DNA from: Cyanidioschyzon merolae | Taxonomy: Eukaryota | DNA length: 64,000 nucleotides | Reading direction: 5' to 3' (one strand) | NCBI GenBank assembly: GCA_000091205.1 | Contig: AP006502.2 | The notes under the pieces: generated by a model | Told to the model about the DNA's origin: nothing | Seen by the model: only the letters and a program-made list of their open reading frames with translations | Databases searched by the model: none | In this document: piece after piece, positions 880-45,807 of the stretch | How positions within the stretch are numbered: position 1 is the first letter of the stretch | Layout of the letters: each line of letters opens with the position of its first letter | Translations under genes and position numbers: made by a program

Positions 880-3415
880 CTCTTTGGTATTTTCTATATC
901 GTCCGCCCTGGTAGCGCATCGCGAATTCTTGCCGTTACGTCACACTCTGTGCGTCTCGCCGATCATGGGGAACGTGTTAATGACCTCTTCTAGAGCGACT
1001 GCTCCATTGGGGCCACTTGCATTTTTAATTGAATGGTAGCAAAGTATTGTTTTGTATTCAATGGCGTTTCTAACTTCTAGTAAGAGTATTCAACTGATTC
1101 TCGCCATTCAACGCAGAGGTGTCCGACGAGTTTTTTACTAAAAAATGTCAGACTTTTGTAATTTTAGGTTGTGTGTTATGGAGGGCCGTTGTCGCCGAGT
1201 ATCGGGAAAAAAGGTGACAGAGTAGCTAATTCCAGAGGACTAGGAAAAGAAGTGGAAGCGAAATGGGGAGGTGCTACGACGAACGCTGCAGTAGTTTCGT
1301 GTCTATGTCGATATGGTTGTGGAATCCTGTCGTCTCCAACATATCAATGATCCGTACGACTGAACGCTCCGAGACGCAATCAGAAACCGCGTCGACTTGC
1401 ACTCCAGGAATGTTTGTTACTCTTTTTTAGGACTTACGCTTTTCGTGAGCGAGCTGCATCGCGACGTAATGCACATCGCAAAAGTGATTCTTCCGGAATA
1501 CTTTATCAAAAAAGACTTTCATCAACCACCTGATTGCTCGCAATGGGGGCGCATCAAAGAGAACTGGGCGGGCGGATGCCTACGTCAAAATTTACGACAA
1601 GTACAGCATCAACGGTGCTGGACACAGGGGTGACGCAGATATTTACGAATACAGGGCTTTAGGTGCCTCACGAATGTGAGGAACCATATGATCCTAATCC
1701 TCGATTGTATCACGATATGCGTTGTCATTGCGCTGTACCCGGGCCTGTTTCGCGAAGGGATACCGGTAATCATCGATGGTATGAAGAACGATCGCCAGCA
1801 TGAACAGAAGATCATATTTGTCGACAAGGGAACATCACGCTGGAGAATAAATAGGTATTCTGTTATCCGCCCAAGTATTCAAAAGCGTCGTTCGGTCTCG
1901 GGACTTGTCAACCCAAGAGAAAAACCTGTCATGTATGGAAAATATGAAGAGAGATGTTCCTTCCTCATCTTGCCCTACTTCATGGTTTTTGGATCGAGAT
2001 CTCGAACGCAGGGCCGAAATGGAGCTGAGTATGGATACAATGGAGTATTGGAGAGTTGGCACTGAAGAACTCCTCCAGTTGCGCTTTATTCGACCGGTTA
2101 TGCGAATTCCAGTCACATGTTTTGATTTTTGACTTTAGAGTTCTTTTCGCCTTCATGGAAGAGGTTTATCCAGTGCCCGATGGATGCGACAGAGACGTAA
2201 CCGGCGAAGACCGGGATACCTACTAGACGCGGAAGTTCGAGCTCAAGCGTCCGAAACCGGCCAGTAAAAGGTATTCACCGGGGCCATGGATAACGATCGG
2301 GTATACATATATGTACACTTTCAGCGGTAGCAGGCATTTGTCCCATCCCGTCTTCTTTACCGCCCTCGCCGAAGCACGGAAACAGGAAGGCCGGCCATGG
2401 GATATATAATCCCCACGAGGACGACCTCGTCGTCGGCCTCAAACCCTGGAATACTGATTTTATAACCATCGTTGTTACAAGCGTTCGGAATATTTTACTG
2501 AATGTAGCTTACGTCGGAATGACAGGCGTCTTTTGAGGTTCTAGAGATCGACGTTCTACCCAGAAGCGGGAATCGTGAATACGAGGAAGAAAATTGAGAC
2601 TTGGGATGCAAAAGTGGAAGAGCATCTCGAAGTTGTGAGCGAGGTGAAGAGCCGAGGAGCGGATTTTCAGGCTTTTCAAGATTTCATGGATGTTCGTTTT
2701 GCTCATTGGGATGCGCTGTGGAAGGAGTATACAAAGCCCCGGTGGGCTTTTCTACGTGCGAATCTATACTGTCGGAAGCAGCATGCATTCGCGGACTTTT
2801 TCAATGAGTTGAGCTCCTTGAAGGAGAATGAAAGTCTGAGGCTCGTAGTAGCATATTGAGCATGGAGCTGGGCGTCGAGAAAGGGGACTACGCGTGCCCC
2901 AACGACAAGGACATTCAAAAAGTGTGCACGGCGTCTCGTTACGGTAACTGTAGATGAATTTGGAGCTTCGTATACACACCACGAGCTGTGATGTACACTC
3001 CACAGGGGCGAGATGGAAAAGTGCCAACGGAACCCTGAGGAAATAGCAAAGTACGGACCGCTGACGGAAGAGCAAATGGAAATGAGGGCAAAAGTTCGTG
3101 GACTCCTTGCATTAGTAGGTACAACGAACGATGGCGAGAAACGGATGGAGTTCGTGAACCGAGACTTTAACGCCGCTATCAGTATCAGTAGATGTGCGGT
3201 GCTGGAGAAGAGACTTGCAAAGTAGACAAGAGACAACTTTGTTGGACAACCTCACAAAGCCGAACTATATGAGAGCAAGTTGGAAGCAGTAGTGGGTGGC
3301 CGGTCGAAAACGGCGGGGAGGCGTCTGCACATCAGCTGGAGACGTTATGTCTCGGGCGCCGGTGGCCACTACTGTGCACGACCGGCGTTGTTCGACTTAG
3401 TACGGCGTTTCGCCG
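880..3415 (+). mobile_element. Fanzor/TnpB-like element, copy 0: 5'-eroded and internally deleted (~330 bp missing between ~2130 and ~2460)
   Basis: Nucleotide and protein similarity to copies 1-4. Left-end-like sequence from ~900, ORF1-like fragments at 1397-2132, and the RuvC-II/III part at 2462-3225 (ORFs 2575..2859 and 3013..3225 end in VNRDFNAAISI). The conserved 3' tail ends ~3415. Confidence 0.55.
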
Positions 3416-3520
3416 CGTAAGCTTCGCGAACCAGATCATCAGGAAACTTCAGGGCGCCGCGCTTAACTCGAAGTGCGCCGTACCTTCGGACTTGCTCGGA
3501 ACATCCGATGCGGATGAAGC

Positions 3521-5401
3521 CTAGCCACAGGCACGACAACCACTTTGGGACGCGTCGCTCGAGCGTGGCAGAGTGATTGCTGGATTTTCATCAAAAAATC
3601 CGTATGGCTGTAGCATGAAGCCAGTGCTCATTGCCGGCTGCACTGGAAAGTCCTCCGGTCTCGGCAAGTGATGAATGCCGAACACGTGCCAGAGCACAAG
3701 ATCCGTATCCTCGATGCATCGATTCTGAGACACAAATCGAAGGATGCCGTCCTGTCCGTCCGAGAGATTCACGAATTCACCAGCTGGAAAGCGCTCTTCC
3801 GGATCATAGGCTGTCACCCACAAATGACGACGGATAAAGCCGGAGCGCTGTCCAGAGGGTGAGTCCGGGTCAAGGAACGGCGTGAGCGGATGTGCCGGTT
3901 CTAGTTTGTAGGCGACTGGCATATTAACACGATTCTTTTTGTTCGGATTCAACACTTTCCAATACCGGTGGCTGGCAGGATTCGCACAGCGACATGCCTC
4001 CAGCTCTGTTCGTAGCGGCGTCTCGGTGACGTAGTACGCATTCCCGTAGGGATTCGCAGCTGCATCCTCTGCTCGCGTATTACACTCTACAACAGAGTTG
4101 CGATCCCCGTCTACGCTGAGGTCCATCCGCACGCAGAAGTAATGCTGGTGAATGTGTCCTTCGACGCCAGGCATAACCTCAGTACCGTAGCGGCTCGGTC
4201 TGCCCGGCTCGCAGGCCACAGTGTTGATGACGCCAGTAGCCCGCATTTCGTACTCAATGGCGCCGTCCTGACGAAAATACCAGTATGAGGCGTACTCGTA
4301 ATTGCAAACCGTTGAAATGCTGGAGATGACGAGGCGTCTACCGCGCCGCGTTTCTGCACGGTCGGTGCGGAAATCCCAGTGCTTCCAGAGCAGGCCGGCA
4401 TCCTCTTCGTGAATGCAGATGGCGTTTGGTATGGTCAACGGCTCGCCGTGCATCGTGGCAATGTGGGCGTCCAAATAAACCACGCAACCGGTACAATCAC
4501 AATTCATCCGTAGCGAGTTCGCTAGCTTACCGATCCCGTACTCCCCAATATCAAAAACATTCTTTCGAAAGTGGGGCTCCACTGGCGTGCCGTACGGCAC
4601 GACCATCTCCACCAGGGAGAGCCTGCGAGCCACTGGGCGTCCAGCAAACCGAATATCATGCAGCGTGATACCCTCGCGTGCATTGAAACCAATCACCAGA
4701 GACCATTGATCCCAGGCAATTGAATGATCGTTCAGGACAAAGCTCGGTCCCTCGTCCTGCACAATGCGCAGCGGCTTCAAGGGCTTGCGAATATCAGTTC
4801 TCAGATTAGGTTCGTAATTGCATTCCGTTCGCGGTACGGGGATATTCTGCAGATCATAAACTTTGAGCACTTTATTGCCCAGGACATCCACCATCGCGTA
4901 AAGTCCTTCAACTGGGTGTGCATAGAGGTTGTCATCGGCATGATTCCGTACCCAGCAGAAAGCCAACGCAAGGTGGTGATCCTTCTCCTCAACGGAACCG
5001 AACGCCCCTGCCGACCACGGATCAATACAAACTAGACTCATGTCTTCGATACCGTGTTTCCTGCACGCAGCCTGGAACTCCGGACACGCCCGTACAGCTT
5101 CTTCTATAGCAGTGAACTGTTCAAGCTGGAGCATAGGGCGAGCGTTCGGGTAGTACTTTTTGGCGATTACGATCTCTTGCGAGAGCGAAACGATCAGCTT
5201 CCACACGCCAATAGAGCTTCTTCGGAAGATGAAGACCTCGGCCTCACGTTCGGTGGGCTTGCCGGCCACCCAGAGCTCTTTGGGTGGCTCGTGGAGCTGA
5301 ATTCGCTCAAAGAGCGGTTCCTCTGGGAAAGGTGCGCCCTGGCGGCCGATGCTGGCAGCACGTAAAATCTCCGCTGGCGTGAGCGGCGTCAACGGGTGCA
5401 T
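3521..5401 (-). CDS. Copper-containing amine oxidase (topaquinone enzyme), single exon, 627 aa from first ATG
   Basis: Uninterrupted 644-aa ORF in the track, but its start is TTG; the first ATG is at 5401. The product contains the TPQ consensus ...TVCNYEYASYWYF... and the His-x-His copper ligand motif (GHIHQHYFCVRMD) typical of copper amine oxidases. Confidence 0.85.
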   Translation of the reverse strand: MHPLTPLTPAEILRAASIGRQGAPFPEEPLFERIQLHEPPKELWVAGKPTEREAEVFIFRRSSIGVWKLIVSLSQEIVIAKKYYPNARPMLQLEQFTAIEEAVRACPEFQAACRKHGIEDMSLVCIDPWSAGAFGSVEEKDHHLALAFCWVRNHADDNLYAHPVEGLYAMVDVLGNKVLKVYDLQNIPVPRTECNYEPNLRTDIRKPLKPLRIVQDEGPSFVLNDHSIAWDQWSLVIGFNAREGITLHDIRFAGRPVARRLSLVEMVVPYGTPVEPHFRKNVFDIGEYGIGKLANSLRMNCDCTGCVVYLDAHIATMHGEPLTIPNAICIHEEDAGLLWKHWDFRTDRAETRRGRRLVISSISTVCNYEYASYWYFRQDGAIEYEMRATGVINTVACEPGRPSRYGTEVMPGVEGHIHQHYFCVRMDLSVDGDRNSVVECNTRAEDAAANPYGNAYYVTETPLRTELEACRCANPASHRYWKVLNPNKKNRVNMPVAYKLEPAHPLTPFLDPDSPSGQRSGFIRRHLWVTAYDPEERFPAGEFVNLSDGQDGILRFVSQNRCIEDTDLVLWHVFGIHHLPRPEDFPVQPAMSTGFMLQPYGFFDENPAITLPRSSDASQSGCRACG

Positions 5402-6072
5402 AATAGAGGTGTCCTGCCTCTTGTGCAGTAGTGCAAAGACAACACGAGCAACCAAGATTACCTCGGTTGCGCTTCAAGGCGCCTCAGCGTCTACCGTACC
5501 AAGCACTGCAACGGTAACCGGGAGCAATGCAGGAATGAATTCCGTTGAGCGATCAACTTGCGACATAGATGTACAGAACGTACAGGAGCAATCTGGGTGT
5601 CGGACACGTCTCCTTCATCGAGCGGGGAGGCGTCTCGCGCAGTGCACGCATCGCTCTTGGTGAGCGTATACCTGGGAAATCAGGCAGTCAACTGACACGA
5701 TGCGTATGCCATTGAAGGGAAACGCGATCCTGATCAGTAGGGTGTTGTTGAACCGGAAAAAGTTGGATTTCAATTCAGGTCGTAGCCAAGAACATTTTTC
5801 ACTTCGTATTTGTTTCAACCTTCAAACAAGTCTAGACAAGTGGTTTTTCGCAGTATATAACAGAAGCGTTCAAAGAGCGTTGTTTTTTTAAAAAAAAAAC
5901 CTAAAAATGGAAAGCTTTGAGAAAGCAAGCTGACGATCCTGGAGGGCTAGGGTCGCCGGCCGCTAGAGACAAACAAAAAGCAGTACCGAGTCCAGAAGAA
6001 AAGGAAGAGAAGAAGAACCGAAAGCGGGAGGCCCTACGTCGGAGGCGGCAAGAAACATGACTGTAGAACGAG

Positions 6073-8267
6073 ATGGAGGTGAAAACCTTTCTTCTTGGAC
6101 GTATAAAGGATCCCTACAGGGAAAAGTTGCGAGAATCTATCGAAAAACGTGTCGACTCGTACTCCTTGAGGATTATGAAGGTTTCTTCATAACTATTCCA
6201 TTTGGTGAAGGAGATGTGTCGCGACGTAACCTAGATGGAAATGGTGGACATTCCGGACAAGTTTTTCGATAAGACCTTTATTCGTCACTTGATGCTTGGC
6301 ACAGAGAAAGCGCGGAAGGAAAATGAGCGGGTGTATGCGCTCCACGAAAAACATCCCTTTTACAGCTTCAAGGGTACTCGGTACAAGGGTGACCGGGATG
6401 TTTACGACTATGGGGCGATGAAGTACCTCACGAACCTGAAGAACCATTTGACAGAGAACCTCGAACGTTCCATGATACGCGCCGTGTTTGCGCTGTACCC
6501 TGGCATCGCTCGCAAAGGAAAATGGGCGATTACCAATGGCGTCACGAACGATCGCAAGCATGAAGATGCTATCGAGCTCGTCGACAAGAAGACATCACGT
6601 AAGCGAAAGAATGAAGCTTCTGTAATCCGTGCGGCCATACACGAGTACCGTACAGTCTTGGGGTTGGCAAATCCGACAGACAAGATATCAGAGTTGAAAA
6701 AATATAAGGAATGATACTATCGCCTCGTCCTGCGCTATTTTGTGTTTCTGGACCGAGAACTCGAACGCAAGGCAGAGGCGAGGCTGAGTGAGGAAAAAAA
6801 TGAAGAGTGGGAGAGACGGAAGGCTTTCCTAATGGGTAAGCGCTTCAACGTCGTTCCAACGTGCAAGATCAAGTGACATTTGTAACTATCGACTCTAGAA
6901 TCCTTCACGCCATCATGAAGGAGATCAGTCCGGAGTTCAGTGTCAGCAAGGAGAAGTTCTCCGGTGAAAACCGGGAGAGGTACTGGAAGAATATCTTCGA
7001 TTTCAAACGCTTGAGAGTGAGCAAGGAAACGTTGTTCACCGGGATGTTTGAAACCGATGGAGTAGCCTAGTGTGTACACTATCGGCGGTTCAAGAAAGAT
7101 CGTCCTGGTCCGCCGTCGGCTGTGCCCGTGACGAAGGATGAAGAAAAGAATGAGGCGGATCCTGCGACGCAGGAGGTGGAGGAGAACGAACTTATCTTTG
7201 ACGCGGCGAATCATGAAGATGAGGAGGAGGCGGATCCTGTGACGCAGGAGGTGGAGGAGAACGACCTTGTCGTTGACGTGGCGAAGCATGAAGGAAAGAA
7301 GGAGGCGGATCCTACAATGCAGAAAACGCAGGAGAACGACTTTGTCGTTGGTGTGGACCCTGGAAATACGAATATCATAACCATCGCAGCACCCAAGCGC
7401 GCGGAAGATGGTGCTGATGGTAACTTGCGTCGGAAAGACATGCGTCTTTTGAGGTTCTCAAGAGCTAGATATTACTGAGAATCCGGTGTAATGTATGCAA
7501 GGAAGAAAACCGAGAAATGGAATTCAGGAATGAAAGATCACCTAAAAGCTTTGAGCGAAGTGACGAGCCGAGGAACCGACTTTGAAGCTTTTCGGAAATT
7601 CATGGAAGATCGGTTTGCGCATTGGGATGCGCTGTGGGAGGAGTATACCATGCCCCGGTGGGCTTGTTTGCGTATGAATTTGTATTGTGGGAAGCAGCGG
7701 GCGTTCGCCAACTTCTTCAATCAGTTGAGCGCCTTGAAGGAGGACCAGAGTCAGAGGCTTGTAGTAGCGTATGGGGCAGGCCGCTGGAAGACCCAAAAAG
7801 GAACAATGCCACCTCCAACGACAAGAACGCACAAGGAGTGCGCACAACGTCTCTTTACGATACCTGTAGACGAGTTCCGAACATCCTATACACACCATGA
7901 ACTGGGATGTACACTTCAGAAAGTGGAGATGGAAAAGTGTTAGCGGAGCCCTGAAGACATAGCAAAGTACGGTCCTTTGACGGAAGAGGAAACGGAAAGG
8001 AGACCGAAAGTTCGAGGGCTACTCGCATAAGTGAATACAACTAACGGGAAGAAACCGATGGAACTCGTGAACCGGGACTTAAATGCCGCTATCAATATCC
8101 GAAAATGTGCGATGCTGGAGACGAGACCTCCAGAATGGACAAGAGGGAACTTTGTTGGACAACCTCTTGAAGTCGAACTATATGAGAGAAAGTTTGAAGC
8201 AGTAGTCGGTGGCCGGTCCAAAAAGACGGGTAGGCGTCTGCACGTCAGTTGGAGACGTCTTGTCTAG
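6073..8267 (+). pseudogene. Fanzor/TnpB-like (OrfB_IS605 family) nuclease pseudogene, copy 1
   Basis: The ancestral single ORF (~730 aa) is broken by in-frame TAA and TAG in the N-terminal part, TGA at 6715, a 1-nt deletion near 6880, TAG at 7071, TGA at 7479, TAG at 7944 and TAA near 8026. Fragments appear in the track as 6235..6714, 6861..7070, 7122..7478, 7491..7943 and 8031..8267. Confidence 0.7.
7122..7330. repeat. Three tandem ~75-bp (25-aa) acidic repeats inside the Fanzor-like ORF, immediately upstream of RuvC-I
   Basis: [26 protein letters not shown] / [25 protein letters not shown] / [26 protein letters not shown]. The other copies carry 1-2 units. Confidence 0.6.
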
Positions 8268-8340
8268 GGCGGCCCGGACGCCACTACTGTACACGGTCGG
8301 CTTCGTTCGAGTTCAGAACGGCGTTTGGCTGTGGTGTTGA

Positions 8341-10854
8341 ATGTCGAGCGCCGATCAGCCTCCGACCCAGTCTCAAGAGCAAAACTGGTCTCAGGTCTCG
8401 AGCACTGTCGTCGAAGTTGCCCACACAGTGGACGTTCATGTTCAACCCGTGTGCTTCGTCGATCTGAGCGAGGAAATTCACGCCTTCGCGCAGCTAGAAA
8501 AGTTTGCGAAGTGTGAATCATCCGAAGTTATCATAGATCTTAATGTCCGAAATACACATCAAGCTGTTGGGGCCCTCGTTCGCTGTCTGGAGGAGCGCGG
8601 AAAGTTGCCAGCTCACTCCGGAGACTTGCTACGGCGGCAGCTCCTGGGCGCAGAGCCACCGTCACTCTTTCAACTTGCACAGCAGGGGCTTCATATGTCT
8701 AGTGGGGGAGACGTACTCGGCCACGCTTCTGGATACTGGACACATAGCATACAGGGGCCCTCTTTTATTATTGGGTATACCGAAACCCCTTTGTTGCTTA
8801 GTGACGAGGAAGCAGTAGCAGTTGCACGGCTCGCACACCCACTGAACGCTGGGGCACTCAACAACTCGCTGACACGCTTCCTAGTACTTGTACTGACGCT
8901 TGCGCACGATACACCCCAGGTTCGCCGGGCGTCCGAAATGGCACGCGTTTTCGCTTCGCTTTTCGCAGATGAAGTATTCTACGACGAAGCTGTCGAGGCG
9001 TCCGATAGAGCTTCTTTCCTGGAGGCTATCCATCGTTTCCTTGAACGGCAACGGGACGCTGCACGAGAACGCGAAGCGCTGCATCGAAGCGTTCGATTGG
9101 CGACAGCAGCCACGGTGACTTTCTTCGATGATGATAATCATGTTGATGGTGATGGCGTTGCGGAGTATCTTGGTGGTACAGATGGCGGTACCCTTTCTGG
9201 GTGCAGAACAAAAGATGTGACTATTAACGACAATTTTGGTATCATGAACGCTCGCCTCGACCGATACTTCAAAGCACAAGGATATTCGAATCTGGATACG
9301 GTGCCACGCTGGAAGTACTGGTTGGCGCTGTTCTTTCGCTTTCCGGGGGCATTGATGGCTGCAGATCTTCGCCGCCGTCTACCCCATTATCGATCCGACT
9401 GGACAGCGGAATGGAACAAGATTCACGCTCTCGGAAAGTATTTCTTCGCGAGTATTTTTCTCATATTTACAGTCACGTTGCCTGCGATTGTTTTCGGCGT
9501 TATAGCGAGTCGCACGACTCACGGAGAGATTGGTGTCATCGAGTGTCTGTTTGCCCAGGGTGTACTGGGCATTGGTTTTGCGTTCTTCAGCGCCCAGCCG
9601 CTGATGGTGAATATGGTCACTGGTCCCACCATCGTCTACATTCAAGTGCTCTATCGCTGGTCCCAGAGGCTCGGGTTCGCATTTCTTCCCTTTTTTGGAT
9701 GGACAGGTATTTGGATGGGCATTTTTGTGATGTCGTATGCGATCATGAATACGTCAACACTCATACCGTACCTTGGCCGATTCACTGATGAGATTTTCCA
9801 AACCTTTATTGGAATCATTTTTATTCAATATTGGTTTACGGAATTTGTCCGAGTTACGCACACTGGCTACGAACAGGTCCTTTTATTCTTGGTGCTTTCT
9901 CTGGGAACGCTTCTGCTTGCGTTACTTCTGGTGTCTGTACGAGGCAGTTTCCTGCTACGCCCCATACTGCGATCCATTCTGGGGGACATCGGCCCCGCTC
10001 TCTCTGTTTTCATTTGGACCGGTCTGTCGTACGCGTTCGATCCGATTGATGTGCCTCGTCTGCAGATACCGGGCTCTGTTGGTTACAGCACAACGACTGG
10101 ACGACCGTGGATTGTCCCACTAGGAAGTCTATCCGTCGGCTATGTATTTTTGGCCATCGTTCCCGGCTGGCTGCTCTCGCTCATCGTCTACATTGATCAA
10201 CAGGTGTGTACTTATATCGTGGAACGACCGGAAAATCGCTTGCGCAAAGGCACTGGGTACAGTTGGAATCTTTTCGTGACTGGCGCTCTTGCCGTTCTTG
10301 CCTCGATTCTCGGCATACCTTGGATGTATGCAGGGCTGCCACACTCGCTTTTGCACGTTTATGCACTTGCTGAAATTGAGGACATAGAGCTCATGGGAAG
10401 ACGATGGATACGTGTTCTTCGTGCGCGGGAGGTGCGCATTGCTGCACTAAGCGCTTACCTCTTTGCCTTGTTGATCATTCTGGCCAAACCAGCTCTAGAT
10501 CAGCTGCCGATCTATGTGTTGTACGGCTTTATTCTGTACATGGGTGCAGCTTCATTTCTGAACAACCCTCTCTGGGATCGATTCGTTCTCTTGTTTACAC
10601 AGCCAACCAAGTACCCACCGACACATTATGTTCGACGTGTCCCCATGAGTCACCTGCACCTCTACACCTCTGTTCAGGTAATCCTTACAGTCGTTCTCTT
10701 TTTTGTCGCGGTCAATTTTTATCGAGGTGCAACTCTATTCAATACTGGCCTCATCTTTCCATTGGTCCTGTTCCTTTTCGTCCCATTCAAGTGGATGGTG
10801 TTGTATCGCTGGTTTCCGCGACGTGAGCTGCGCGTGCTTGAAAATCAGCTTTAG
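8341..10854 (+). CDS. SLC4/band-3-type anion exchanger (HCO3-/borate transporter family), 837 aa, single exon
   Basis: The start is ATG. The N-terminal half is cytoplasmic and the C-terminal half is multi-TM. Band-3 signatures are present: DLRRRLPHYRSDW (compare DIRRRYPYYLSD), GVIECLFAQGVLGIGFAFFSAQPLMVNMVTGP (compare [32 protein letters not shown]) and FTEFVRV. Confidence 0.8.
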   Translation: MSSADQPPTQSQEQNWSQVSSTVVEVAHTVDVHVQPVCFVDLSEEIHAFAQLEKFAKCESSEVIIDLNVRNTHQAVGALVRCLEERGKLPAHSGDLLRRQLLGAEPPSLFQLAQQGLHMSSGGDVLGHASGYWTHSIQGPSFIIGYTETPLLLSDEEAVAVARLAHPLNAGALNNSLTRFLVLVLTLAHDTPQVRRASEMARVFASLFADEVFYDEAVEASDRASFLEAIHRFLERQRDAAREREALHRSVRLATAATVTFFDDDNHVDGDGVAEYLGGTDGGTLSGCRTKDVTINDNFGIMNARLDRYFKAQGYSNLDTVPRWKYWLALFFRFPGALMAADLRRRLPHYRSDWTAEWNKIHALGKYFFASIFLIFTVTLPAIVFGVIASRTTHGEIGVIECLFAQGVLGIGFAFFSAQPLMVNMVTGPTIVYIQVLYRWSQRLGFAFLPFFGWTGIWMGIFVMSYAIMNTSTLIPYLGRFTDEIFQTFIGIIFIQYWFTEFVRVTHTGYEQVLLFLVLSLGTLLLALLLVSVRGSFLLRPILRSILGDIGPALSVFIWTGLSYAFDPIDVPRLQIPGSVGYSTTTGRPWIVPLGSLSVGYVFLAIVPGWLLSLIVYIDQQVCTYIVERPENRLRKGTGYSWNLFVTGALAVLASILGIPWMYAGLPHSLLHVYALAEIEDIELMGRRWIRVLRAREVRIAALSAYLFALLIILAKPALDQLPIYVLYGFILYMGAASFLNNPLWDRFVLLFTQPTKYPPTHYVRRVPMSHLHLYTSVQVILTVVLFFVAVNFYRGATLFNTGLIFPLVLFLFVPFKWMVLYRWFPRRELRVLENQL

Positions 10855-13800
10855 ATGGAAATTTCTGATCGAGTCTTGGGAGTTTTCCAGTAAAATTGGC
10901 CATCGCAGATTGATAGATAGACTGTAGAGTCGGAAATCGTGTTTACATTTCATCGAAGCGCAAATTGCTGGGGCAGGCATGTATCAGCAGAGGCCCTTTT
11001 TGCGAGTACGGGAGGTAGGTGCTTTCCTGATGCGAGGCCGAGATCTCGAGTCCAAAGTGATCCGCTGATGCTTGCTTTTCCAGAGGTAGAGACTCCCTTT
11101 GCCGGAACTGGTCGTGATTTGTACCCACAACCGGTACGGAAGGCACGTCAGTGAAGAGATTCGCTACGACTATACGCGGTATCATACGATTATGCTGCGG
11201 AGATCTCGGATACGAGAGCCGAAATACAACACGTGGCGCTGATAAAACAACCCGCTTGATTGCATGCGACTTGTTGGACATTCGGGAACAAGGCGGTTCA
11301 TTTTGAAACGCCCATGCCAGCATACCTTCTTTGTTTATGTTTGTTATTCTCGCTGGTATTCGCGAATCGACCGTGTCGCATAGATTGGAAATGAGCCGTG
11401 GAAAGAGTACATGCTGTTATCATCGGACAACGTCATACGAGATTACAGGTGAAACACAGTGATTCTAGGGTCATCAAACGGATGAACGAGTTTTTCGTTG
11501 TACTTATCTTGACCCTCCTACACCCAAAACTAAACACAGAAATATCGCCTACAAGACTGTGTCCGGGTTCATCCTTTTCTTTGCATGCGACCTCGAAGAG
11601 AGACTACAATCACCTACAGGGTGTGAATGGTCCACATCGTTGATTCGGACAGCGATCAAGGGACACAGACGGACAGAAGGAAGGCATTATTTATTGCAGA
11701 CCGCCACGCTCCGAACAGGGCAAAATCGAATTCATACTCAAACGCACGCGTATCTCTCGGGAGAAAGAGGTATGGATCTCGAATGGTGAAGTTCTAGTCA
11801 AGAGAAATACTATTCTTGAATATGGGTACTCGGAGGTTAAGCGTAAACCCCTGATCGTAAAAGAGACAGCGCGCAACCTGACAACATCGGTCTTACCAGT
11901 TTCCAAGTACATCGTGTGCTGGGAATCGCGGAACTTGCAGCATAACTCAATGACACATGTTCCTTCCGAGTACTTCACAATGCCTCCTTCACAAAACCAT
12001 AGAACCCGATCGTCGATGACGTCGGTCTCCATCACATAGAAGCGGACGGAAAATACGCAGCTGATATTGGCAGCTGTTGCTATTTGGTCCTTCCCATTCT
12101 ATCTGGACAAAATCAGCAACTGGGATCTTCTCTGCAGTCAGACGATAATCGTGTATACACAGATCACTTAGAGAGTTGTTCGACTTCGTGAAATTGAACT
12201 TCTTTGATAAAACCTTCCTCGACATATCGGTGACCTACTTTACCAGCTCATAGCCACCGTCATCTTCCTCGTACATATGAAGGAGGAGGAAGAAAGGCGA
12301 GCGCCAAACTGTAGGCGTGCTCGCGACGGCAAGACTGGGTTGATTTACTAGAAGAAGTAACTTTCGTCGCACGGTCCATCCCGCACAAACGACTCCTTTT
12401 GGAAACAAATGCATCCACAGTAAGCTGGCCACTGCCAAGCACTCCTTCGGTGTGGATGAAAAACGGTGTAACGGGAAGGATGAGAAGCAACGGGAAAGAA
12501 AGGAAGAGAATCCTCCAGGAAGACGACCAAGGAGGACTTGGGGCAAAAGCTGTCGGAGCGGAAACATCTTTCAGGAACCATCGTCAAGGCCTCCGTCCTA
12601 CAACTTACCATCAGGAATAATCTCCCACACAACGAAATGCTCAACATCGTTCCCGATCGCGTGGCTTCTGTCTCGACGCAAGGTAAACCCAGTTTCCCGC
12701 TCCACGATGCATGTCGCTGAGCAGGTGTTCGTACCAGTCTCGGACGCAGAGCTGCTAGCAGCCGGGATTCCTCGGGAGCTTTTCGATCTCGGCTTTGTGC
12801 CATAACACAATGGATGCTCGGGACGGAAGACGCAGTGCGGTCCGAGTACAGGATCAGGGAGATACGCGCACACACACACATTACCCAGACTTGGTTGACG
12901 CTTCACTGCACAATGTTGACGATCGGAACATCTGCACTGCAGGCGACCATAACACTATCAAACCGACCACTGCAATCAAGTCCATACGCCTGCCAAATGA
13001 CGAGCGCTCCATGCAGCGCACCCTGTAGGCGTTCCATTCTCACGCTGGCGGCCCCGGTGAGTTGGTACTGACACCAAAAAAGAATCTTCGCCTCTGCGCA
13101 TACACGAGCGTCCATATCGCCCAGGCGGACAATCCGTGGCACGAATCCATGCGACAGTGCTGGTGCTGCCAAAAGATTCCATTCGACGGAGGCAGGTCTC
13201 TTGCATTCACCAACTTGTCCAATGCACTGAAAAGATAAGTGACCGAAAAGCCGTTTTGTTTTCCGGTGGTAACCCGCGTCGCTGGACGTTCTGTGGCGAG
13301 CCATGGAGACGCCCATGTCCCTTCGACGAACGCACGCCGCAAGTGCATTGCTCCATGCCGAACGAATCCCATCGATGCATCCAGGGCGCCATCCAGGTAT
13401 CTTGAGCACGGGCGCGCATGCACGAAGCTACAGAAGAAGGGCTTGAAATACATCCAGATGAACGAGATGGCGTGCGTCTCGCTGACTTGACGGAGATACG
13501 AATGCCTCGATCGGCATCCGAAAAGGACCCCTGCGATTCGGGAGCGTCCATCGTTTCTTTTTTTCTGCCGGAGGATCTTTCCAGTTGATCTATTGACGAC
13601 GCAGTGCGCCGTTGTTCGGCAGAGCGGAATGCTTCTGATCCAAAGAAATCAATGCCAAAGATATAACGCATTTGATTCCGGTCTGGAGCAATGCACTGGT
13701 ATTGTATGAGCTGCAACCCAGTAGGTCTTGAGCGCCGTACGTTTGCACTGGAAGTGATGCTTCCAGGCAAAAAGTAGAAGATATTGCTGTCCTATGGTTC

Positions 13801-15037: not shown

Positions 15038-17622
15038 TCGCCTGGGAAATCGCGCAGTCAACTGACACGATGCGCGTGCCGCCGATGAAGGGAAACGTTG
15101 TCGTGATCAGTTACGTGTTGTTCTGCTGTAAACATCGGATTTCTGTTGAGGCCATAGCAAAATACAGTCTTTCGGTTCGGTTTTGTTTCAAACTTCAACC
15201 AAGTCTAGTAAAGTGCTTTTTCGCAGCATATAACAGAAGCGTTCATTGAGGGTTCATTAAAAAACGAAAAACGGAAAGCTATGGAAAACCAGTCGACGAT
15301 CCTGGAGGGCTAGGGTCGCCGGCTGCCAGAAAAAAAACAAAAAGCAGTGCCGAGTCCAGAAGAAAAGGAAGGGAAGATGAACCGAAAGCGGGAGGCCCTA
15401 CGTCGGAGGCGGCAAGAAACATGACTGTAGAACGAGATGGAGGTGAAAACCTTTCTTCTTGGACACATCAAGGATCCCTACAGGGAAAAGTTGCGATACC
15501 CTATCAGAAAACGTGTCGACTCGTACTCCTTGAGGATTATGAAGGTTTCTTCATAACTATTCCATTTGGTGAAGGAGATGTGTCGCGACGTACCGCAGAT
15601 GGAAATGGTGGAGATTCCTGACAAGTTTTTCGATAAGACCTTTATTCGTCACTTGATGCTTGGCACAGAGAAAGGACGGATGGAAAATGAGCGGGTGCAT
15701 GCTCTCCACGAAAAACATCCCTTTTACAGCTTCAAGGGTACTCGGTACAAGGGTGACCGGGATGTTTACGACTATGGGGCGATGAAGTACCTCACGAACC
15801 TGAAGAACCGTTTGACAGAGAACCTCGAACGTTCCATGATACGCGCCGTGGTTGCACTCTACCCGGGCCAGTCTCGCCAAGGAAAATGGGCGATTATCAT
15901 AGGAATCACCAAAGATCGCAAGCATGAAGATGAGATCGAACTCGTCGACAAGAAGACATCACGTAAGAGAAAGAATGAAGCTTCTGTCATCCGTGCGGCC
16001 ATACACGAGTACCGTACAGTCTTGGGGTTGGCAAATCCGACAGACAAGATATCAGAGTTGAAAAAATATAAGGAATGATACTATCGCCTCGTCCTGCGCT
16101 ATTTTGTGTTTCTGGACCGAGAACTCGAACGCAAGGCAGAGGCGAGGCTGAGTGAGGAAAAAAATGAAGAGTGGGAGAGACGGAAGGCTTTCCTAATGGG
16201 TAAGCGCTTCGACGTGGTTCCAATGTGCAAGATCAAGTCACATTTGTGACTATCGACTCCGGCGTCCTTTACGGCATCATGAAGGAGATCAGTTCCGAGC
16301 TCAATGTCAGCAGGGAGGAGTTCTCCGGTGAAAACCGGGAGACGTACTGGAAGAATATCCTCAATTTCAAACGTCTCAAAGTCAGCGCGAAAAAGAAATT
16401 CACTGGGATGCTCGAAACCGATGGAGCAACCATTTGTGTACACTATCGGCGGTTAAAGAAAGATCGTCCAGTCCCGCCCTCGGCTGAGTCCTCTGCGAAA
16501 CATGAAGAAAACAAAGAAGCGAATCCTGAGACGCAAAAATTGCAGGATGACGACCTTGTCGTTGGCGCGGTGAGGCATGAAGAATAGAAGGAGGCAGATC
16601 TTGCGACGCAGGAGGTGCAGGATAACGACCTTGTCGTTCCTGCGGACCCGGGGAATACAAATATCATAACCATCGTTGTGCCCAAGCATGCGGAAGATGG
16701 TACTGACGGCAACTTACGTCAGAAAGACACGCGTGTGTTGAGATTCTCGAGAGCGAGAAATTATCGAGAATCCGGTATAATGAATGCGAGGAAGAAAATC
16801 GAGACTTGGGATGCAGGAATGAAGGATCAAATGGAAGCTTTGAGCGAGTTGACTAGCCGACGAACGGACGTTGAAGCTTTTCGGAAATTCATGGAAGTTC
16901 GCATTGCGCATTGGGATGCGCGGTGGGAGGAGTATACAAAGCCCCGGTGGGCTCGTCTGCGTATGAATTTCTACTGTGGCAATCAGCGGGCGTTCGCGAA
17001 TTTTTTTTAATAAGTTGAGCGCCTTGAAGGAGAATGAAAGTCAGAGGCTCGTAGTAGCGTACGGAGCAGGACGTTGGGCGTCGAGAAAAGGGACTACACC
17101 AGCTCCAACGACAAGGGTGTACAAAGAGTTCGCAAGGCATTTCGTTACGATACCTGTATTTGAGTTCCGAACATCGTATACACACCATGAGCTGGGTTGT
17201 ATACTCCAGAGAGTCGAGATGGAAAAGTGCCTGCGGAGTCCTGAAGATATACAAAAGCACGTACCGCTGACGGAGGTGCAACTGGAAAGGAGGGCGAAAG
17301 TGCGAGGGCCTCTCGCATTAGTAAGTACAGCCAATGATGGCAAGAAACGTATGGAGTGTGTGAACCCAGATTTTAATGCCGCTATCAATACAGGAAAAAG
17401 TGCGGTGCTGGAGAAAAGATCTCCAGAGTGGACAAGAGGGAACTTTATTGGACAACCTCTCAAAGTTGCACTATATAAGAAGAAGTTGTAAGCAGTACTA
17501 GGTGACCGGTCCAAAAAGAAGGGGTGGCGTCTGCCCTTACTTGGAGATGTTTCGTCTAGGGCGCGGTTACAGCCACTACTCTACAGCTGGCGACAGCGTT
17601 TTTTCTTTTGAAAGGTGTTTCT
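15038..17622 (+). mobile_element. Fanzor/TnpB-like element, copy 2 (pseudogenised)
   Basis: Same left end, ORF and right-end tail as copy 1. It shares copy 1's two N-terminal nonsense codons and its 1-nt deletion, and has its own frameshift at the run ttttttttaataag (~17005). Confidence 0.75.
15437..17560 (+). pseudogene. Fanzor/TnpB-like nuclease pseudogene, copy 2
   Basis: Track fragments are 15566..16078, 16225..16587, 16615..17010 ([13 protein letters not shown]...RLLRFS) and 16976..17491 (LVVAYGAGRW ... FEFRTSYTHHELGC ... VNPDFNAAINT). Confidence 0.7.
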
Positions 17623-19566
17623 TTCCAGGGGTGCGTCCGCCAAGCGACACTATCCAACTGGAAGCCCGCAAGCACCAGCAACGTCCTCTGTAGAGCGCAA
17701 TCACGAAACCTGCACAGGATCACACGTGGGCGGTACCAGCTTCGCTGTCAATGCTCCTCGAGAAAATGCTCTGCAGCGGGATATAACGCGCTGCCTGGCC
17801 GAACTGTAGGCCGAAGCTCACCAGCCCGTTTCCGTGACTATAATATATCGTATCGAGGTTTCGCGTCGTAGCGCTTTGTATACCGACGGTTAAATAGAGT
17901 GTGGAGGCAAACGACGAACGCTTATCTCGCACGTACGCAGCACAAGTTAAACTAACTCAGACGATACCGCTTGCAGACGATTCGACGGCGCCTGGCTCAT
18001 CACTGTGCAATTCGTCGTGGCAGACCCCTCTGACGCTCGGAGTACTTTGGTCGGCAAAGATATTGGCTAAAGAGGTTTGTGTACTTGCTGCTGGGAACTC
18101 CTTCTGTTCCAGGCCTGGTACGAGCGCCAACTCCGGGAGATCGTTTACGAGCATCCAACTTTGCCGGACGTTGGTGATGCGGGCGGGCGGTGGTAGCAAG
18201 TCGAGGCGCTAGCGCCGCGCTTCTAAGGCGTCACGAGCGAGCAAGCAGTGAAGCTTCGAAGTATACGGTGCCACGTACGGCAAAGAGCGTTGTCCCCCAC
18301 GTAATCCTGACCGTTTATCTTACGCAAACGCGTCGGTAACCATTCCTTGCTTTCCCAACATTGAATCTATCAACTGTTTCACCTGTGCGCACTACTTGTT
18401 CACGAACTTAGAGTGAAATCCGCCTCGCACGAAGCCATTCGGATGAACCATGCTACCTGTGCTCCGCCAGCGATGAGGACGCGGGTCTGCGCTCATCCGT
18501 CGTGTTTTGTACTAGCTGAAGGACTTCAATAGTACCAGTGCATGAGAGCATTGACAGCAAGTCTGAGAATACGTCGCCACCGCAGTGCAAGCGCGTTACA
18601 AGCACACACGCACATGAAACCGCTACTATATCCATCTCTCTCGGAGCAAGCATCATCGGCCCAGTCACTATTTCGATCGATCTAATAGTTCACATCTTCT
18701 ACGGTTTCCATTCCACACAGGATTCACATTTCGATATTCTGTTTGCTGCTTATTTTAGCAACGCAACAGAACAAGTCGCTGTCGCAGAATAGCCCCAATC
18801 TGACCACTGCGCATCTGGTTCGGTCGCTGACGTTCCCTCACGAACGCAAAGCGGAACTATGGCAACAATGTGTATCGAATGCTACAAAGAAAGCGGATAT
18901 ACACGGAGAGCAGCTCGAAAGGTGCGAAACGAAGCATACAGACTGCGAGTTTTTCCAAGCTCCATCATGAATGTGGCATTTGGTAAAAGAACCTCCCCAA
19001 TACCGTGACATTGTAAACGGAGCGCACCGTTCCAGTACAGAGCAATTTTCATTCCCGTGTTCACCGAAATGGAACGATGCCTGGCGGATCCACTCCGCTG
19101 CAAACAGTATTTGCGGAAGGCCAAAGCTTCAGCGATAAGGTGCACTTTGAAACGCTCCTGAAGCAGATGTAGTTCTGTGTACGTGTAATTGATGCGCTGC
19201 GTGTATTAGCACCAATAGTGCTGCTCGAAAAGCCCTTGATAAGAAGGTAACGGGCAAAACTTTTCGTTCCAAGTCACTCGACAGCTGGCGTGTATTGCGA
19301 GGTGAGGTCACTCACCGGTTCAGAAGTAATAGTACGCGAGCGTGTGTTTCAGTGCTGCTGCCGCTTATTCCACCAGATGACTCGAGACCTGCTACATAAA
19401 AGTCATGAGTTCCGTGCATCAGCCACGTCCACACTGCGGCTGAATTGCCCAGAGTGCACTTAACACCATCGAGGAGCGCTTTTGCAGAGCGTCCTGCCTC
19501 CCATGCATGGATCCCTTGACTGGGGCGTTCTGAGCACCTTCAGTCGATAGGCTATTCTTGAAAAGA

Positions 19567-22500
19567 TCAAATGATGTTCTGCACGTGTTGAATTCGAGGA
19601 ACGACATAGAACCAACGACCGAATGCCGTCATATTCATCCCATTGTTCGTGCTAGATAGACCGCCGCTGCCACTGGTGCCTGAACCAGAAGTTCCGCTGC
19701 TGCTACCACTACCGGTGTCACTGGTGCCTGAACCAAAAGTTCCGCTGTTGCTACCACTGCTTGTGTCACTGGTGCCTGAACCAAAAGTTCCGCTGTTGCT
19801 ACCACTGCTTGTGTCACTGGTGCCTGAACCAGGAGTTTTGCTGCTGCTACCACTGCCGGTGTCACTGGTGCCTGAACCAGGAGTTCCGCTGTTGCTACCA
19901 CTGCTTGTGTCACTGGTGCCTGAACCAGGAGTTCCGCTGTTGCTACCACTGCTTGTGTCACTGGTGCCTGAGCCCAAATTCCCGGCTCTGCTGCTACTGC
20001 TGCTGACAGGGATAGCGGATGTCTGCTCGATGATCCTATCCGGGCCTGAAGATGAGGTAGTTGGAGCATCGATACCTGTTCCAGGGCGGGGTGTTGACCC
20101 TAGACTGCTAAAAGTTGGCGGACTTATCGTGGTACGCATCGCTGTTGCGAATGCCCCCAGTGTGGATGAATGCGAGTTACGTTCTCCGCCGGGTTCCACA
20201 TTGTCTAAAAAGGAGCCGCCAGAAGTGCTCGTTGTAATAACCGGACTAAAGGGCGGTGGTAGTGTTGCCGTGGTCGCCACAGGTAGAGTGCTTACAGAGA
20301 GCGATGAGGCCTGTGATGATGTGGGGGTCACCGACATCGCATTCATCGTAGCGATGTACGGAGTTGGTGTGGGATGAACAACAGCTGGAGTAACCGTTGC
20401 AGTTGCTCTTGGAGCGCTTTCGGCACTATGGGTGCTGTTCCGCTCAGGTTCAGCAAAAAAGGCCTCAGAGACGCCAGACGATGCCGTGCCATTCGAGGTT
20501 GACGTACCCGCCTGGGTGCATACGCAGAGGTCGCCAACGCAGACCTTGGCCAGGTTACCAGAACAGCTGCCGGTGGTCGTTACGCACCCGCAGATATCTC
20601 CCAATAGACATGTGTAGACGACTCCTCCGGGGCACGGGGGAACCGAAGTAGACGAGACCGTACTCGTCGATGTAGACGTCGACGTGGTCATCGCTACGGA
20701 CGACGGCGTGCCAGTCGACGAAAACGAAGATATAGAGGCCGAGGGAACATTCGGAGAAGGTGAAGAAGAACTCGTCGACGAAGGCGTAAAATAAGGGATT
20801 GTTGTCGCTGCAGCAGTAGCCGATCTGTCCAACGATTGCCGTAACGAAGCACTCGATGACGCACTCGATGACGCACTCGATGACGCACTCGATGACGCAC
20901 TCGATGACGCACTTACAGATGCCTTTCGAGTCGGATGACGAGAGCGACCGCTCGATGACGATACATGGTCAGACGTACTGCGTGAGGAAGAAGAGCTCAT
21001 GGAGTACGAGTACGAGGCACTGGCAGATGCACTCGCAGATGAACTAGCAGACGCACTCGCAGAGGCGCTTAGAGATGCACTCGCAGAGGCGCTTAGAGAT
21101 GCACTCACAGAGGCGCTTAGAGATGCACTCGCAGAGTCATACGCGCTCACAGAGTACGAACCAGAAGCGCTCGCAGATGCGCTGGCAGACGCAGACTCGC
21201 TCTTCGACTGAGAGTACGAGTACGAGTACGAGGCACTGGCAGATGCACTCGCAGAGGCGCTTAGAGATGCACTCGCAGAGTCATACGCGCTCACAGAGTA
21301 TGAACCAGAAGCGCTCGCAGATGCGCTGGCAGACGCAGACTCGCTCTTCGACTGAGAGAACGAGTACGAGTACGAGGCACTGGCAGACGCACTCGCAGAG
21401 GCGCTTAGAGATGCACTCGCAGAGTCATACGCGCTCACAGAGTACGACCCAGAAGCGCTCGCAGATGCGCTGGCAGACGCAGACTCGCTCTTCGACTGAG
21501 AGTACGAGTACGAGTACGAGGCACTGGCAGATGCACTCGCAGAGGCGCTTAGAGATGCACTCGCAGAGTCATACGCGCTCACAGAGTACGACCCAGAAGC
21601 GCTCGCAGATGCGCTGGCAGACGCAGACTCGCTCTTCGACTGAGAGTACGAGTACGAGTACGAGGCACTGGCAGACGCACTCGCAGAGGCGCTTAGAGAT
21701 GCACTCGCAGAGTCATACGCGCTCACAGAGTACGACCCAGAAGCGCTCGCAGATGCGCTGGCAGACGCAGACTCGCTCTTCGACTGAGAGTACGAGTACG
21801 AGTACGAGTACGAGGCACTGGCAGACGCACTCGCAGAGGCGCTTAGAGATGCACTCGCAGAGTCATACGCGCTCACAGAGTACGAACCAGAAGCGCTCGC
21901 AGATGCGCTGGCAGACGCAGACTCGCTCTTCGACTGAGAGTACGAGTACGAGTACGAGGCACTGGCAGACGCACTCGCAGATGAACTAGCAGACGCACTC
22001 GCAGAGGCGCTTAGAGATGCACTCGCAGAGTCATACGCGCTCACAGAGTACGACCCAGAAGCGCTCGCAGATGCGCTGGCAGACGCAGACTCGCTCTTCG
22101 ACTGAGAGTACGAGTACGAGTACGAGGCACTGGCAGACGCACTCGCAGATGAACTAGCAGACGCACTCGCAGAGGCGCTTAGAGATGCACTCCCTGAGGC
22201 GCTTAGAGATGCACTCGCGGAGGCGCTTAGAGACGCACTCGCGGAGGCGCTTAGAGATGCACTCGCAGAGGCGCTTAGAGATGCACTCGCAGAGGCACTG
22301 GCAGACGCACTCGCTGAGGCGCTTAGAGATGCACTCGCAGAGTCATACGCGCTCACAGAGTACGACCCAGAAGCGCTCGCAGATGCGCTGGCAGACGCAG
22401 ACTCGCTCTTCGACTGAGAGTACGAGTACGAGTACGAGGCACTGGCAGACGCACTCGCAGAGGCGCTTAGAGACGCACTCGCAGAGGCGCTTAGAGATGC

Positions 22501-31770: not shown

Positions 31771-31813
31771 AATGCTGCCACAAGTAAACGTCTTGTCTAT
31801 GAAAAAAAGAATC

Positions 31814-44984: not shown

Positions 44985-45071
44985 GGGACTCACGGGGACT
45001 TGAACCCCGGACCTCTCGCACGTTCTTCGGTAACTCCCGAAGCGAGCATTCTACCCCTGAACTATGAGTCC
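44985..45071 (-). tRNA. tRNA-Pro (anticodon CGG) with a 15-nt intron between positions 37 and 38
   Basis: Folded by hand on the minus strand: GGACTCA-TA-GTTC-AGGGGTA-GAAT-G-CTCGC-TTCGGG-[agttaccgaagaacg]-T-GCGAG-AGGTC-CGGGG-TTCAAGT-CCCCG-TGAGTCC-C. All four stems are fully paired. It closely resembles the eukaryotic tRNA-Pro consensus (...CTCGCTTNGGGTGCGAGAGGTCCCGGGTTCAAATCCCGG...). CCA is not encoded. Confidence 0.6.
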
Positions 45072-45807
45072 CGTTTGTTGCTGGCGCCTGCGATCCACCT
45101 GCATCAGCACATCGCGACCGCCGAACTGTAGCAATTATTTGCGATATTCTATATATAAATGGTTGCGCTACGAGCGATGGCGATTGCGCGCGATTTTTTG
45201 CGACACATGTGTATATTAAGGACAGATTCATGGGTGATGCTTACGGTATTTCACCTCAACGGGGTTCCACTCGCAGATGCGTGGAATCAAGAGTGGTTTC
45301 GTGCTTAACAGCAACCACGTTCGAAGCGCGTTCATTAGAAGAAATAGAAAACCCAAGGGAAAGAATCGTCATCGAAGCGGCGGATCGAAGAGGGTCGGTG
45401 TCGTCGGGGTTTGACAAGGAAACGAAATAATCCTCTCCTCGCCGACCATCGAGCAAGGGAGAGCTACTGACGAAGAAAAAGAATAGTGGGGATTGGCGAG
45501 CAAAACTTGTTCGCCGTAGAGGACGATGATGAGACTAGAGTGGCACAGAGGGCAAGTGTTTGAGAAATCCCTGGACTGATGCATTGTACCAGAGGCATTA
45601 AAGTCAAGGAGTTCATGAACAGTTACTTGAACGCCGAACGCAATATTACACGATGTAAGATGCTGAAGACGAGAACCGTGGAGCTGACGCGAGCATTTTT
45701 GGGGCGCAACCTCTCAGGCTCGAAGTGTACAAAGAGAAACTGAAAACGATTGCAGGACGCTGGTCGAAAAAGGCTGGCAGCCGTCTGCGGGCGGATATCA
45801 ATTTACC

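Follow-up and report, generated by a model that had tools for sequence, protein, structure and literature searches.

Elements of the TnpB/Fanzor type must be transcribed outward across their right end, which is what gives their omega-RNA a guide. The closest described family is CMe-1A of Cyanidioschyzon merolae, for which Bao and Jurka (2013, PMC3627910) reported approximately 150 copies of about 3 kb that are about 80% identical to the consensus, lack terminal inverted repeats (TIRs) and have undetermined target-site duplications (TSDs), and in which the 5' 635 bp correspond to TE-N2_CMe. The transposon-adjacent motifs (TAMs) and the guides of Fz1 proteins have also been described (PMC11423790). 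Here, we analysed a window of 64,000 nucleotides (nt) of C. merolae DNA (contig AP006502.2; the window means this whole stretch) in which the right ends of two degenerate copies of an element that fits CMe-1A, as matched on its published description, adjoin the start codons of two host genes, an SLC4-type anion transporter (ATG at 8341) and the peroxin PEX10 (ATG at 34442). This association of right ends with gene starts was found to be recurrent and orientation-specific.

The two copies in question, copy B (5597–8333, + strand) and copy D (31523–34441, + strand), both close with a hairpin, the foot of which marks their right limit. In copy D, the last paired base (34441) is followed by the ATG with a gap of 0 nt, and in copy B, the foot at 8333 is separated from the ATG by a spacer of 7 nt (GTGTTGA, 8334–8340, + strand) that holds an in-frame stop, TGA at 8338–8340, which shuts the SLC4 frame directly 5' of the ATG. 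The SLC4 junction (8300–8360) reads ...gaacGGCGTTTGGCTGTGGTGTTGA followed by ATGtcgagc, and the PEX10 junction (34400–34450) reads ...gaaaGGCGTTTGTTGTTGGCGGTG followed by ATGgcgact. When aligned, they are identical at 19 of 25 positions up to and including the ATG, while past the ATG they agree at 21 of 42 over the next 40 nt, which is roughly background. The preliminary description, which had placed both right ends next to these ATGs in the same orientation and had noted that the junctions are alike for about 25 nt and then diverge, was accurate in both respects, and the positions of the hairpin feet mean that the element extends to the point it had named instead of ending more than 30 nt upstream of the ATGs. 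The 837-amino-acid (aa) open reading frame (ORF) of the SLC4/bicarbonate-type anion transporter (8341–10854, + strand) matches HCO3_cotransp (Pfam, E 6e-113) and falls into a 90% cluster with the C. merolae 10D proteins BAM83046/BAM79923 ('probable anion transporter'), and the 443-aa ORF of PEX10 (34442–35773, + strand) contains Pex2_Pex12 and a C3HC4 RING finger (Pfam) and belongs to a 'peroxin-10' cluster with 10D BAM83049. BAM83046 and BAM83049 lie on one 1.62-Mb chromosome of 10D. The window is 99% identical to contigs from Yellowstone, the junctions are identical across independent assemblies and, in the case of PEX10, the junction is identical in the seven allelic contigs that were examined (L136–L138 and L145–L148). 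Additionally, the start of the copper amine oxidase gene (3521–5455, - strand) and the left limit of copy B are only approximately 140 nt apart (5455–5597), so that this copy fills almost all of the divergent intergenic space toward SLC4.

The right ends of the family were gathered by a single metagenome scan for GGCGTCTGCAC-N30-45-CCACTACTGT, which gave 120 loci that represent approximately 55–63 independent insertions. The 3' 420 nt are conserved at 80–90% up to GAAAGGCGTT/GGCGTT, after which conservation drops to 30–70% for about 11 bases and then to background. This semi-conserved tail is biased in composition (G.38, T.36, C.16, A.10), whereas no such bias was present in the 30 nt that precede 139 host ORFs without the element, and the tail is therefore not an ordinary leader. 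Folding showed the tail to be the 3' arm of a long imperfect hairpin, the 5' arm of which is the ACACCGCTGGCGACAACG... segment that follows CCACTACTGT. The approximately 25 nt common to both junctions are element sequence, namely the G/T-rich 3' arm of this hairpin, and the earlier suggestion that the element had been inserted twice at similar short target motifs did not hold, as the common bases pair with the upstream arm and are unlike host leaders. A host 5' untranslated region (UTR) was ruled out as the source of the tail on the same two grounds. In copy D, the hairpin comprises approximately 23 bp with several G-U pairs (34391–34441, + strand; -31.6 kcal/mol, z -7.7, with 0 of 200 shuffles as good, compared to -16.1 kcal/mol on the - strand), and in copy B, where its 3' arm GTTTGGCTGTG is what had been termed the conserved tail, it is weaker (8292–8333, + strand; -18.7 kcal/mol, z -2.1; - strand -6.1 kcal/mol, z +0.3). 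It was not significant in copies A (z +1.1) and C (z +0.6). Across 46 copies, the mean hairpin energy was -20.8 kcal/mol with the copy's own tail but -15.4 kcal/mol with random genomic flank (Wilcoxon 5e-10) and -7.4 kcal/mol without the tail. The strand asymmetry, which is due to the G-U pairs, points to RNA or to a single-stranded top strand.

Outside of the search pattern, the top-conserved block of the right end was CTATATGAGA (8178–8187, + strand; also 3265–3274 and 34277–34286, with a variant at 17471–17480), which lies approximately 150 nt before the element end, consists of columns that are invariant or at least 90% conserved in an alignment of 49 independent right ends, and is kept even at would-be third codon positions. 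This block may represent a TATA-like element or an omega-RNA motif. Minimum-free-energy folds repeatedly paired CAGTAGTGG with CCACTACTG and formed the terminal hairpin, and Rfam gave no match. The right end appears to be an omega-RNA-like module of approximately 200 nt that closes with an imperfect hairpin, and the present analysis defines the right end of CMe-1A, which had been left open in its original description. Two loci depart from the common anatomy. In L086 (about 290–303), the element stops right after CCACTACTGTA, which is followed by GTGTCAAGGTG and then by the ATG of an aldehyde dehydrogenase gene, and in L047/L110, unrelated sequence stands in place of the hairpin region, yet the ATG of a TPT-transporter gene lies at the 52-nt distance of copy D.

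The association extends well beyond the window. With expected counts taken from the start density of the same loci, the first ATG of an ORF of at least 200 aa was found 40–60 nt after CCACTACTGT, i.e., 16–25 nt after the GGC anchor, at 10 of 63 independent right ends, compared to 0.23 expected (binomial p 5e-14), and the first long-ORF ATG lay at 30–140 nt at 22 of the 63 (1.2 expected). The distances showed a sharp peak, with seven to eight loci at +16 to +18 from the GGC anchor, which is 0–9 nt from the hairpin foot. When the next feature within 600 nt was recorded for 62 right ends, 32 were followed by the start of a co-oriented gene, nine by the end of a convergent gene and 21 by neither. 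Ten of the adjoining ORFs were scanned against Pfam, and all of them were unrelated ordinary genes (alpha/beta hydrolase, NopRA1, DEAD-box helicase, 4Fe-4S protein, COQ10-like, kinesin, Rrp15, aldehyde dehydrogenase, TPT transporter and WD40); in several, such as the kinesin, the DEAD helicase and the TPT transporter, the first Pfam domain begins 15–33 residues past the abutting ATG.

In the case of PEX10, the N-terminus aligns from Met1 with the orthologs P0077 and P0078 (47–48% identity; MATLTRASVRVPVAQQAEV vs MAPEASPAVRIPVAKQAEI and MARQASAAVRIPVAQQAEI), the loci of which keep the downstream synteny (Peptidase_C97, NatA) and showed no Fanzor homology. As orthologs without the element have the same start, ATG 34442 is the ancestral start and the initiation codon is host sequence. 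An ATG donated by the element was accordingly ruled out for PEX10, and most tails also contain no ATG. Upstream of the SLC4 orthologs with 80–81% identity (Cyanidiococcus, a Logan assembly), no element is present; their alignment with the window protein starts at residue 3 of the latter, and their N-terminus is 4 aa longer. One subfamily of the element ends in TTTCCAG, and a spliced 5'-UTR intron was considered and rejected, as the tails of copies B and D have no AG. The stop of the Fanzor pseudo-ORF (TAG, 34364–34366) lies in the frame of the PEX10 ATG with 25 open codons between them, and prokaryote-style gene callers consequently give a 446-aa PEX10 that starts from a TTG inside the hairpin. 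Such '446-aa' variants were ruled out as empty alleles, as they are TTG-start calls on the same junction, and all of the other alleles examined carry the insertion. In 10D, two anion-transporter proteins that are at least 90% identical are encoded on different chromosomes (BAM83046 and BAM79923). A JGI contig with the second transporter protein (L132, Ga0504780_012139) is 99.2% identical to window positions 7463–12647 over 5.2 kb, the 3' part of the element included, and the second C. merolae SLC4 copy lies in a 99%-identical segment that includes the element. The duplication of the anion transporter is recent and took the element along.

A gap of 0–7 nt leaves no room for a separate 5' leader. 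Unless the PEX10 and SLC4 mRNAs lack a leader altogether or transcription runs across the full 2.7 kb of the element, their start sites must lie within it. Transposon sequence thus probably serves as the 5' leader, and likely also as the core promoter, of SLC4, PEX10 and a dozen or more further housekeeping genes. The preliminary description had offered, as one of two options, that the element supplies both the 5' UTR and the initiation context of the two genes; the first part is a nearly unavoidable conclusion from the width of the gap, but the second was not borne out, since the ATG belongs to the host, as the conserved PEX10 start indicates. The best explanation in our view, to which we give about even odds, is that outward transcription of the omega-RNA end supplies the leader, and probably the promoter, of the adjoining genes and that such copies have been kept by selection. 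We infer that transcription would proceed outward over the right end, as the family needs for its guide, and a co-oriented copy that came to lie in a gene leader would then still feed transcripts into the gene, even though the old promoter had been displaced. Such copies would be tolerated at first and kept once the gene had become dependent on them, while copies elsewhere near gene 5' ends would be lost. Eight short JGI contigs that carry SLC4 or PEX10 have their 5' end within the element, 86–851 nt ahead of the ATG, and the six short contigs for which the downstream extent was read (L003–L007 and L133) end approximately 300–800 nt past the stop. The contig sizes and the sample numbering suggest that these are transcript assemblies, possibly from the Lemonade Creek poly-A metatranscriptomes (PRJNA1135266).

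Several points weigh against this explanation. The short contigs would also be obtained if transcripts that are separate but overlap were assembled. Tolerance followed by selection covers the orientation bias and the closeness of the copies to genes, but not the sharp peak at 16–18 nt. A hairpin of -31.6 kcal/mol directly before the AUG makes an awkward leader; a strong hairpin in this position is tolerable under scanning if it is far from the cap, but it is unhelpful. The copy-specific covariation of the hairpin is weak: swapping tails between copies cost little (-19.7 vs -20.8 kcal/mol, p 0.09), and RNAalifold on 49 copies kept only four conserved pairs and no compensatory changes. Moreover, the gene-adjacent copies are neither more nor less complete than the others. 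An empty site was sought in the orthologs and alleles and none was found, so that the original insertion specificity is not readable; the element-free SLC4 (80–81%) and PEX10 (47%) orthologs are too diverged to align upstream of the genes. A preferential reduction of gene-adjacent copies to solo right ends was also considered and discarded, as no difference was seen.

The sharp peak is better accommodated by an insertion preference, which we regard as possible but rather doubtful as the main cause. Here, the abutment would be the primary signature of insertion: the mover of the element would integrate in a fixed orientation at or next to the starts of transcription and translation, either because promoter DNA is open or single-stranded or because a motif that spans the start-codon context is recognised. 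Selection alone does not predict seven to eight loci at +16 to +18, the orientation bias (32 vs 9) agrees with a fixed orientation of integration, and transposons that target the 5' ends of genes are generally known (P, Mu, Tf1 and Ty3). However, no common motif other than the ATG follows the hairpin, and an ATG alone is far too frequent to explain the choice of true starts. At approximately half of the right ends, no gene start is close by, and no young copies or empty sites that would reveal the target were found. Moreover, insertions that sever a promoter would still need transcription from the element, so that a preference of this kind would complement the supply of leaders by the omega-RNA end and not replace it.

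A further explanation, which seems improbable to us, is survivorship through conservation of the guide. Homing into empty alleles would last for as long as the flank matches the guide, so that copies next to conserved coding starts would persist and those next to fast-evolving flanks would decay, which is the safe-harbour logic of Tn7 and glmS moved to the 5' edge of the gene. With a spacer of 0–7 nt, a guide of 16–20 nt would indeed lie almost wholly in the first codons. The copies are ancient and some family members nevertheless keep an intact ORF and the catalytic triad (see also Bao and Jurka, PMC3627910), and there is a small excess of convergent stops, two at 45–51 nt compared to approximately 0.23 expected when the start-derived rate is carried over to stops. 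On the other hand, both starts and gene ends are conserved flanks and the bias is far stronger for the former (10 vs 2), guide production and the TAM are hypothetical here, and the five copies of the window are all pseudogenes that would need a protein acting in trans.

Less probable still are chimeras that formed at the RNA level, in which a reverse transcriptase (RT) that had reached the 5' end of a host mRNA switched to the 3' end of a Fanzor/omega-RNA transcript and the chimeric cDNA recombined into the gene. Such an event would be expected to leave the element precisely where transcription used to start and in the orientation of the gene, with a right end that is fuzzy and a left end that varies, and the copies are in fact co-oriented, joined near the 5' ends of genes, fuzzy at the right boundary and of varying 5' extent. 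An RT gene lies within the window (28156–30675), and the genes of C. merolae are almost intronless and homologous DNA is recombined efficiently in this organism, as is generally known. No poly(A) tail or TSD was seen at the copies, however, and several rare steps would be required. Coincidence in a compact genome or an artefact of ORF calling, for which the short intergenic regions and the mere two cases inside the window might speak, has practically no probability left, as it is effectively refuted by the excess of starts (binomial p 5e-14 to 7e-22 against the start density of the same loci), the bias of the next feature and the Pfam scan, with starts backed by orthologs and domain positions and junctions that are identical in independent assemblies.

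Any omega-RNA from the gene-adjacent copies would bear the first codons of the gene as its guide. The preliminary description had put the would-be guide at the first codons of a host gene in two of four cases; the position follows if the omega-RNA is made as is usual for the family, but the proportion is two of five. We consider it a rather unlikely extension that the omega-RNA end is a portable promoter-and-leader module for a sizeable set of housekeeping genes in a minimal eukaryotic genome, that the element itself may drive its persistence at precisely these sites, and that a Fanzor guided by their conserved first codons may re-home into these genes or otherwise act on them.

The assignment of the element rests on the following observations. 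The window contains five degenerate copies (A–E) of the repeat of approximately 2.6 kb, not four as was believed at first, all on the + strand and all frame-broken, with a copy-to-copy identity of 60–98%; the paralogous copies are old, being at least 17% diverged. Copy A (1206–3418, + strand) has a degenerate hairpin and points with its right end toward the 3' end of the copper amine oxidase gene (3521–5455, - strand) instead of a gene start. Copy C (15042–17633, + strand) also has a degenerate hairpin and adjoins no gene start, and copy E (55468–58560, + strand) carries an extra 5' module of approximately 715 nt and diverges at its right end past GGCGTCTCCACGTCAGT. The left limits of copies B and D are fuzzy, with homology that reaches 116–117 nt upstream of the motif at 5712 in the former and L012-type homology that reaches approximately 350 nt upstream of the motif at 31874 in the latter. 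A left boundary, TSD and TAM were looked for, but the homology starts vary by subgroup (62, 117, 350 and 500–727 nt) and no defined left end emerged; no conserved ORF was found in the left-end region. Inverted repeats were absent from the window copies at the minimum searched length of 60 nt, a search that leaves short TIRs open. Fanzor homology covers 6049–8159 in two frames in copy B and 32151–34244 in three frames in copy D. Two weak Fanzor-like remnants on the + strand (13110–13463 and 42517–42845) are 31–32% identical to the RuvC-II/III region of P0018, and with these, copies and remnants are on the + strand in seven of seven cases within 64 kb.

The majority consensus of the window copies gives an ORF of approximately 707 aa with VVGADPG, VDEFRTS and NRDLNAAINI. 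Its database relatives come mainly from hot-spring metagenomes and include one intact protein of 752 aa, P0018. A profile of 13 full-length homologs matched the Parasitella parasitica Fanzor1 PpFz1 in the PDB (9cf0, E 4.9e-15) in two colinear stretches, the WED/RuvC-I and RuvC-II/III regions, as well as Guillardia theta GtFz1 (E 0.004), whereas a single-sequence search gave only SpuFz1 (E 0.85) and Pfam only a faint match to TNB. The RuvC triad is kept in the 13 homologs including P0018, with D484 invariant and E656 and D725 at least 90% conserved. By this similarity, the element is assigned to Fanzor1, the eukaryotic TnpB-like proteins. Within the Fanzor ORF, a 75-nt tandem repeat lies just 5' of the RuvC-I motif, with three units in copy B (7127–7351), two each in copies C (16491–16640) and D (33297–33446) and one in copy E (57578–57652). 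The 5' module of copy E (55468–56182) is approximately 70% identical to other long copies and resembles the TE-N2_CMe part, and an inverted relative of it, recognised by common translated strings such as QMxHGDRTAFPYH, appears to lie upstream of copy D at about 31330–31600.

Several other features of the window deserve mention. The RT gene referred to above is an 839-aa ORF (28156–30675, + strand; RVT_1, E 1e-21) that represents a retroelement; the left limit of copy D follows approximately 850 nt downstream. A 2454-aa ORF (19567–26931, - strand) consists largely of approximately 43 tandem repeats with a period of 144–168 nt and a G+C content of 57–59%, and a second repeat of 48 nt lies within it at 19620–20051. 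At 89 nt, the tRNA-Pro(CGG) gene (44984–45072, - strand) is rather long, which points to an intron.

To our knowledge, nothing is known of the role of Fanzor elements in their native hosts beyond RNA-guided cleavage in vitro. The family described here is an old, natural one that is tied with base precision to the start codons of many essential genes, in a host in which homologous gene replacement is routine. If the element does supply leaders and promoters, it would represent a clean case of a TnpB-family element that shapes the expression of core genes in a streamlined eukaryote, and it would explain why a genome of 16 Mb has kept approximately 150 dead copies of 3 kb. Should guides be produced, these loci would be ready natural targets, composed of a TAM and first codons (the putative cleavage target being TAM + ATGGCGACTCTCACCCG), for finding out whether the role of Fanzor in vivo is homing, regulation or nothing. 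With a promoter-and-leader module that also re-homes, a eukaryotic RNA-guided nuclease element would for the first time be linked in nature to the starts of host genes.

Literature searches returned no prior report of an association between Fanzor elements and start codons and no data on the transcription start sites of C. merolae. As far as these searches reach, a Fanzor omega-RNA end that is set with base precision at many start codons has not been described, while transposon-derived promoters themselves are known. The element shares with CMe-1A the organism group, a single Fanzor1 ORF, a length of approximately 2.6–3 kb, many copies that are about 80% alike, the absence of TIRs and of recognisable TSDs, and long copies with an extra 5' module of approximately 635–715 nt (TE-N2_CMe). 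However, the terminal hairpin, the defined right end and the relation to host gene starts are absent from the description by Bao and Jurka (2013, PMC3627910).

With the omega-RNA systems of TnpB and Fanzor (IS200/IS605 TnpB; SpuFz1, GtFz1 and PpFz1), the element has in common the protein family and a conserved non-coding module that extends from the 3' end of the ORF, with which it overlaps, to the right end, so that the flank would be the guide, with a stem directly before the guide position. The characterised systems have sharp ends and arbitrary DNA as their flank, whereas in the present family a start codon recurs in the flank and a hairpin rich in G-U pairs forms the boundary. Unlike Tc1/mariner (IS630-like) elements, the window copies lack a transposase ORF as well as inverted repeats of at least 60 nt, a length that leaves shorter TIRs open, and the flanks of their right ends do not open with TA. 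A Fanzor1 relative with 41% identity does reside in a Tc1/mariner-type element that has a DDE_3 transposase, 30-bp TIRs and a sharp end, all of which CMe-1A lacks. In the contigs concerned (L139–L144), this relative lies behind the DDE_3 transposase (e.g., in L140 at 485–1690 and 2094–4193, with the end at 4376), the right end is sharp at ...CATGAGTATA (...GAGTATA), and five tandem units of approximately 18 nt, CGTCTCGACCATTTCG, lie between the two genes; as its copies are nearly identical, this element may be active. The strand-specific 3' hairpin and the variable 5' ends recall HUH/rolling-circle elements (IS200/IS605, IS91 and Helitron), but the element holds no Rep gene and no constant target dinucleotide was seen at its ends.

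Tn7 at attTn7 (glmS) and homing CRISPR-associated transposons likewise place an element just outside a conserved coding sequence that is usable as a recognition sequence. Tn7, however, recognises its site before insertion and at the 3' end of the gene, whereas the RNA-guided re-homing considered here is hypothetical and would follow insertion at the 5' end. The TldR proteins (PMC10705468), which are RNA-guided transcription factors derived from TnpB, resemble the present case in that a guide of the TnpB family matches promoter-proximal host DNA, but they are nuclease-dead, bacterial and act in trans on other loci, while here the family has kept its catalytic triad, and it is the place of insertion that produces the match in cis. 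As in exapted transposon promoters and 5' UTRs, which derive from long terminal repeats (LTRs) or miniature inverted-repeat transposable elements (MITEs), a co-oriented mobile element lies directly upstream of a gene that has too little space for a leader of its own. In contrast to those cases, the donated sequence here would come from the omega-RNA end of an element of the RNA-guided nuclease type, if its putative promoter role is accepted, and the spacing is base-precise and repeated at many genes of a streamlined 16-Mb genome.

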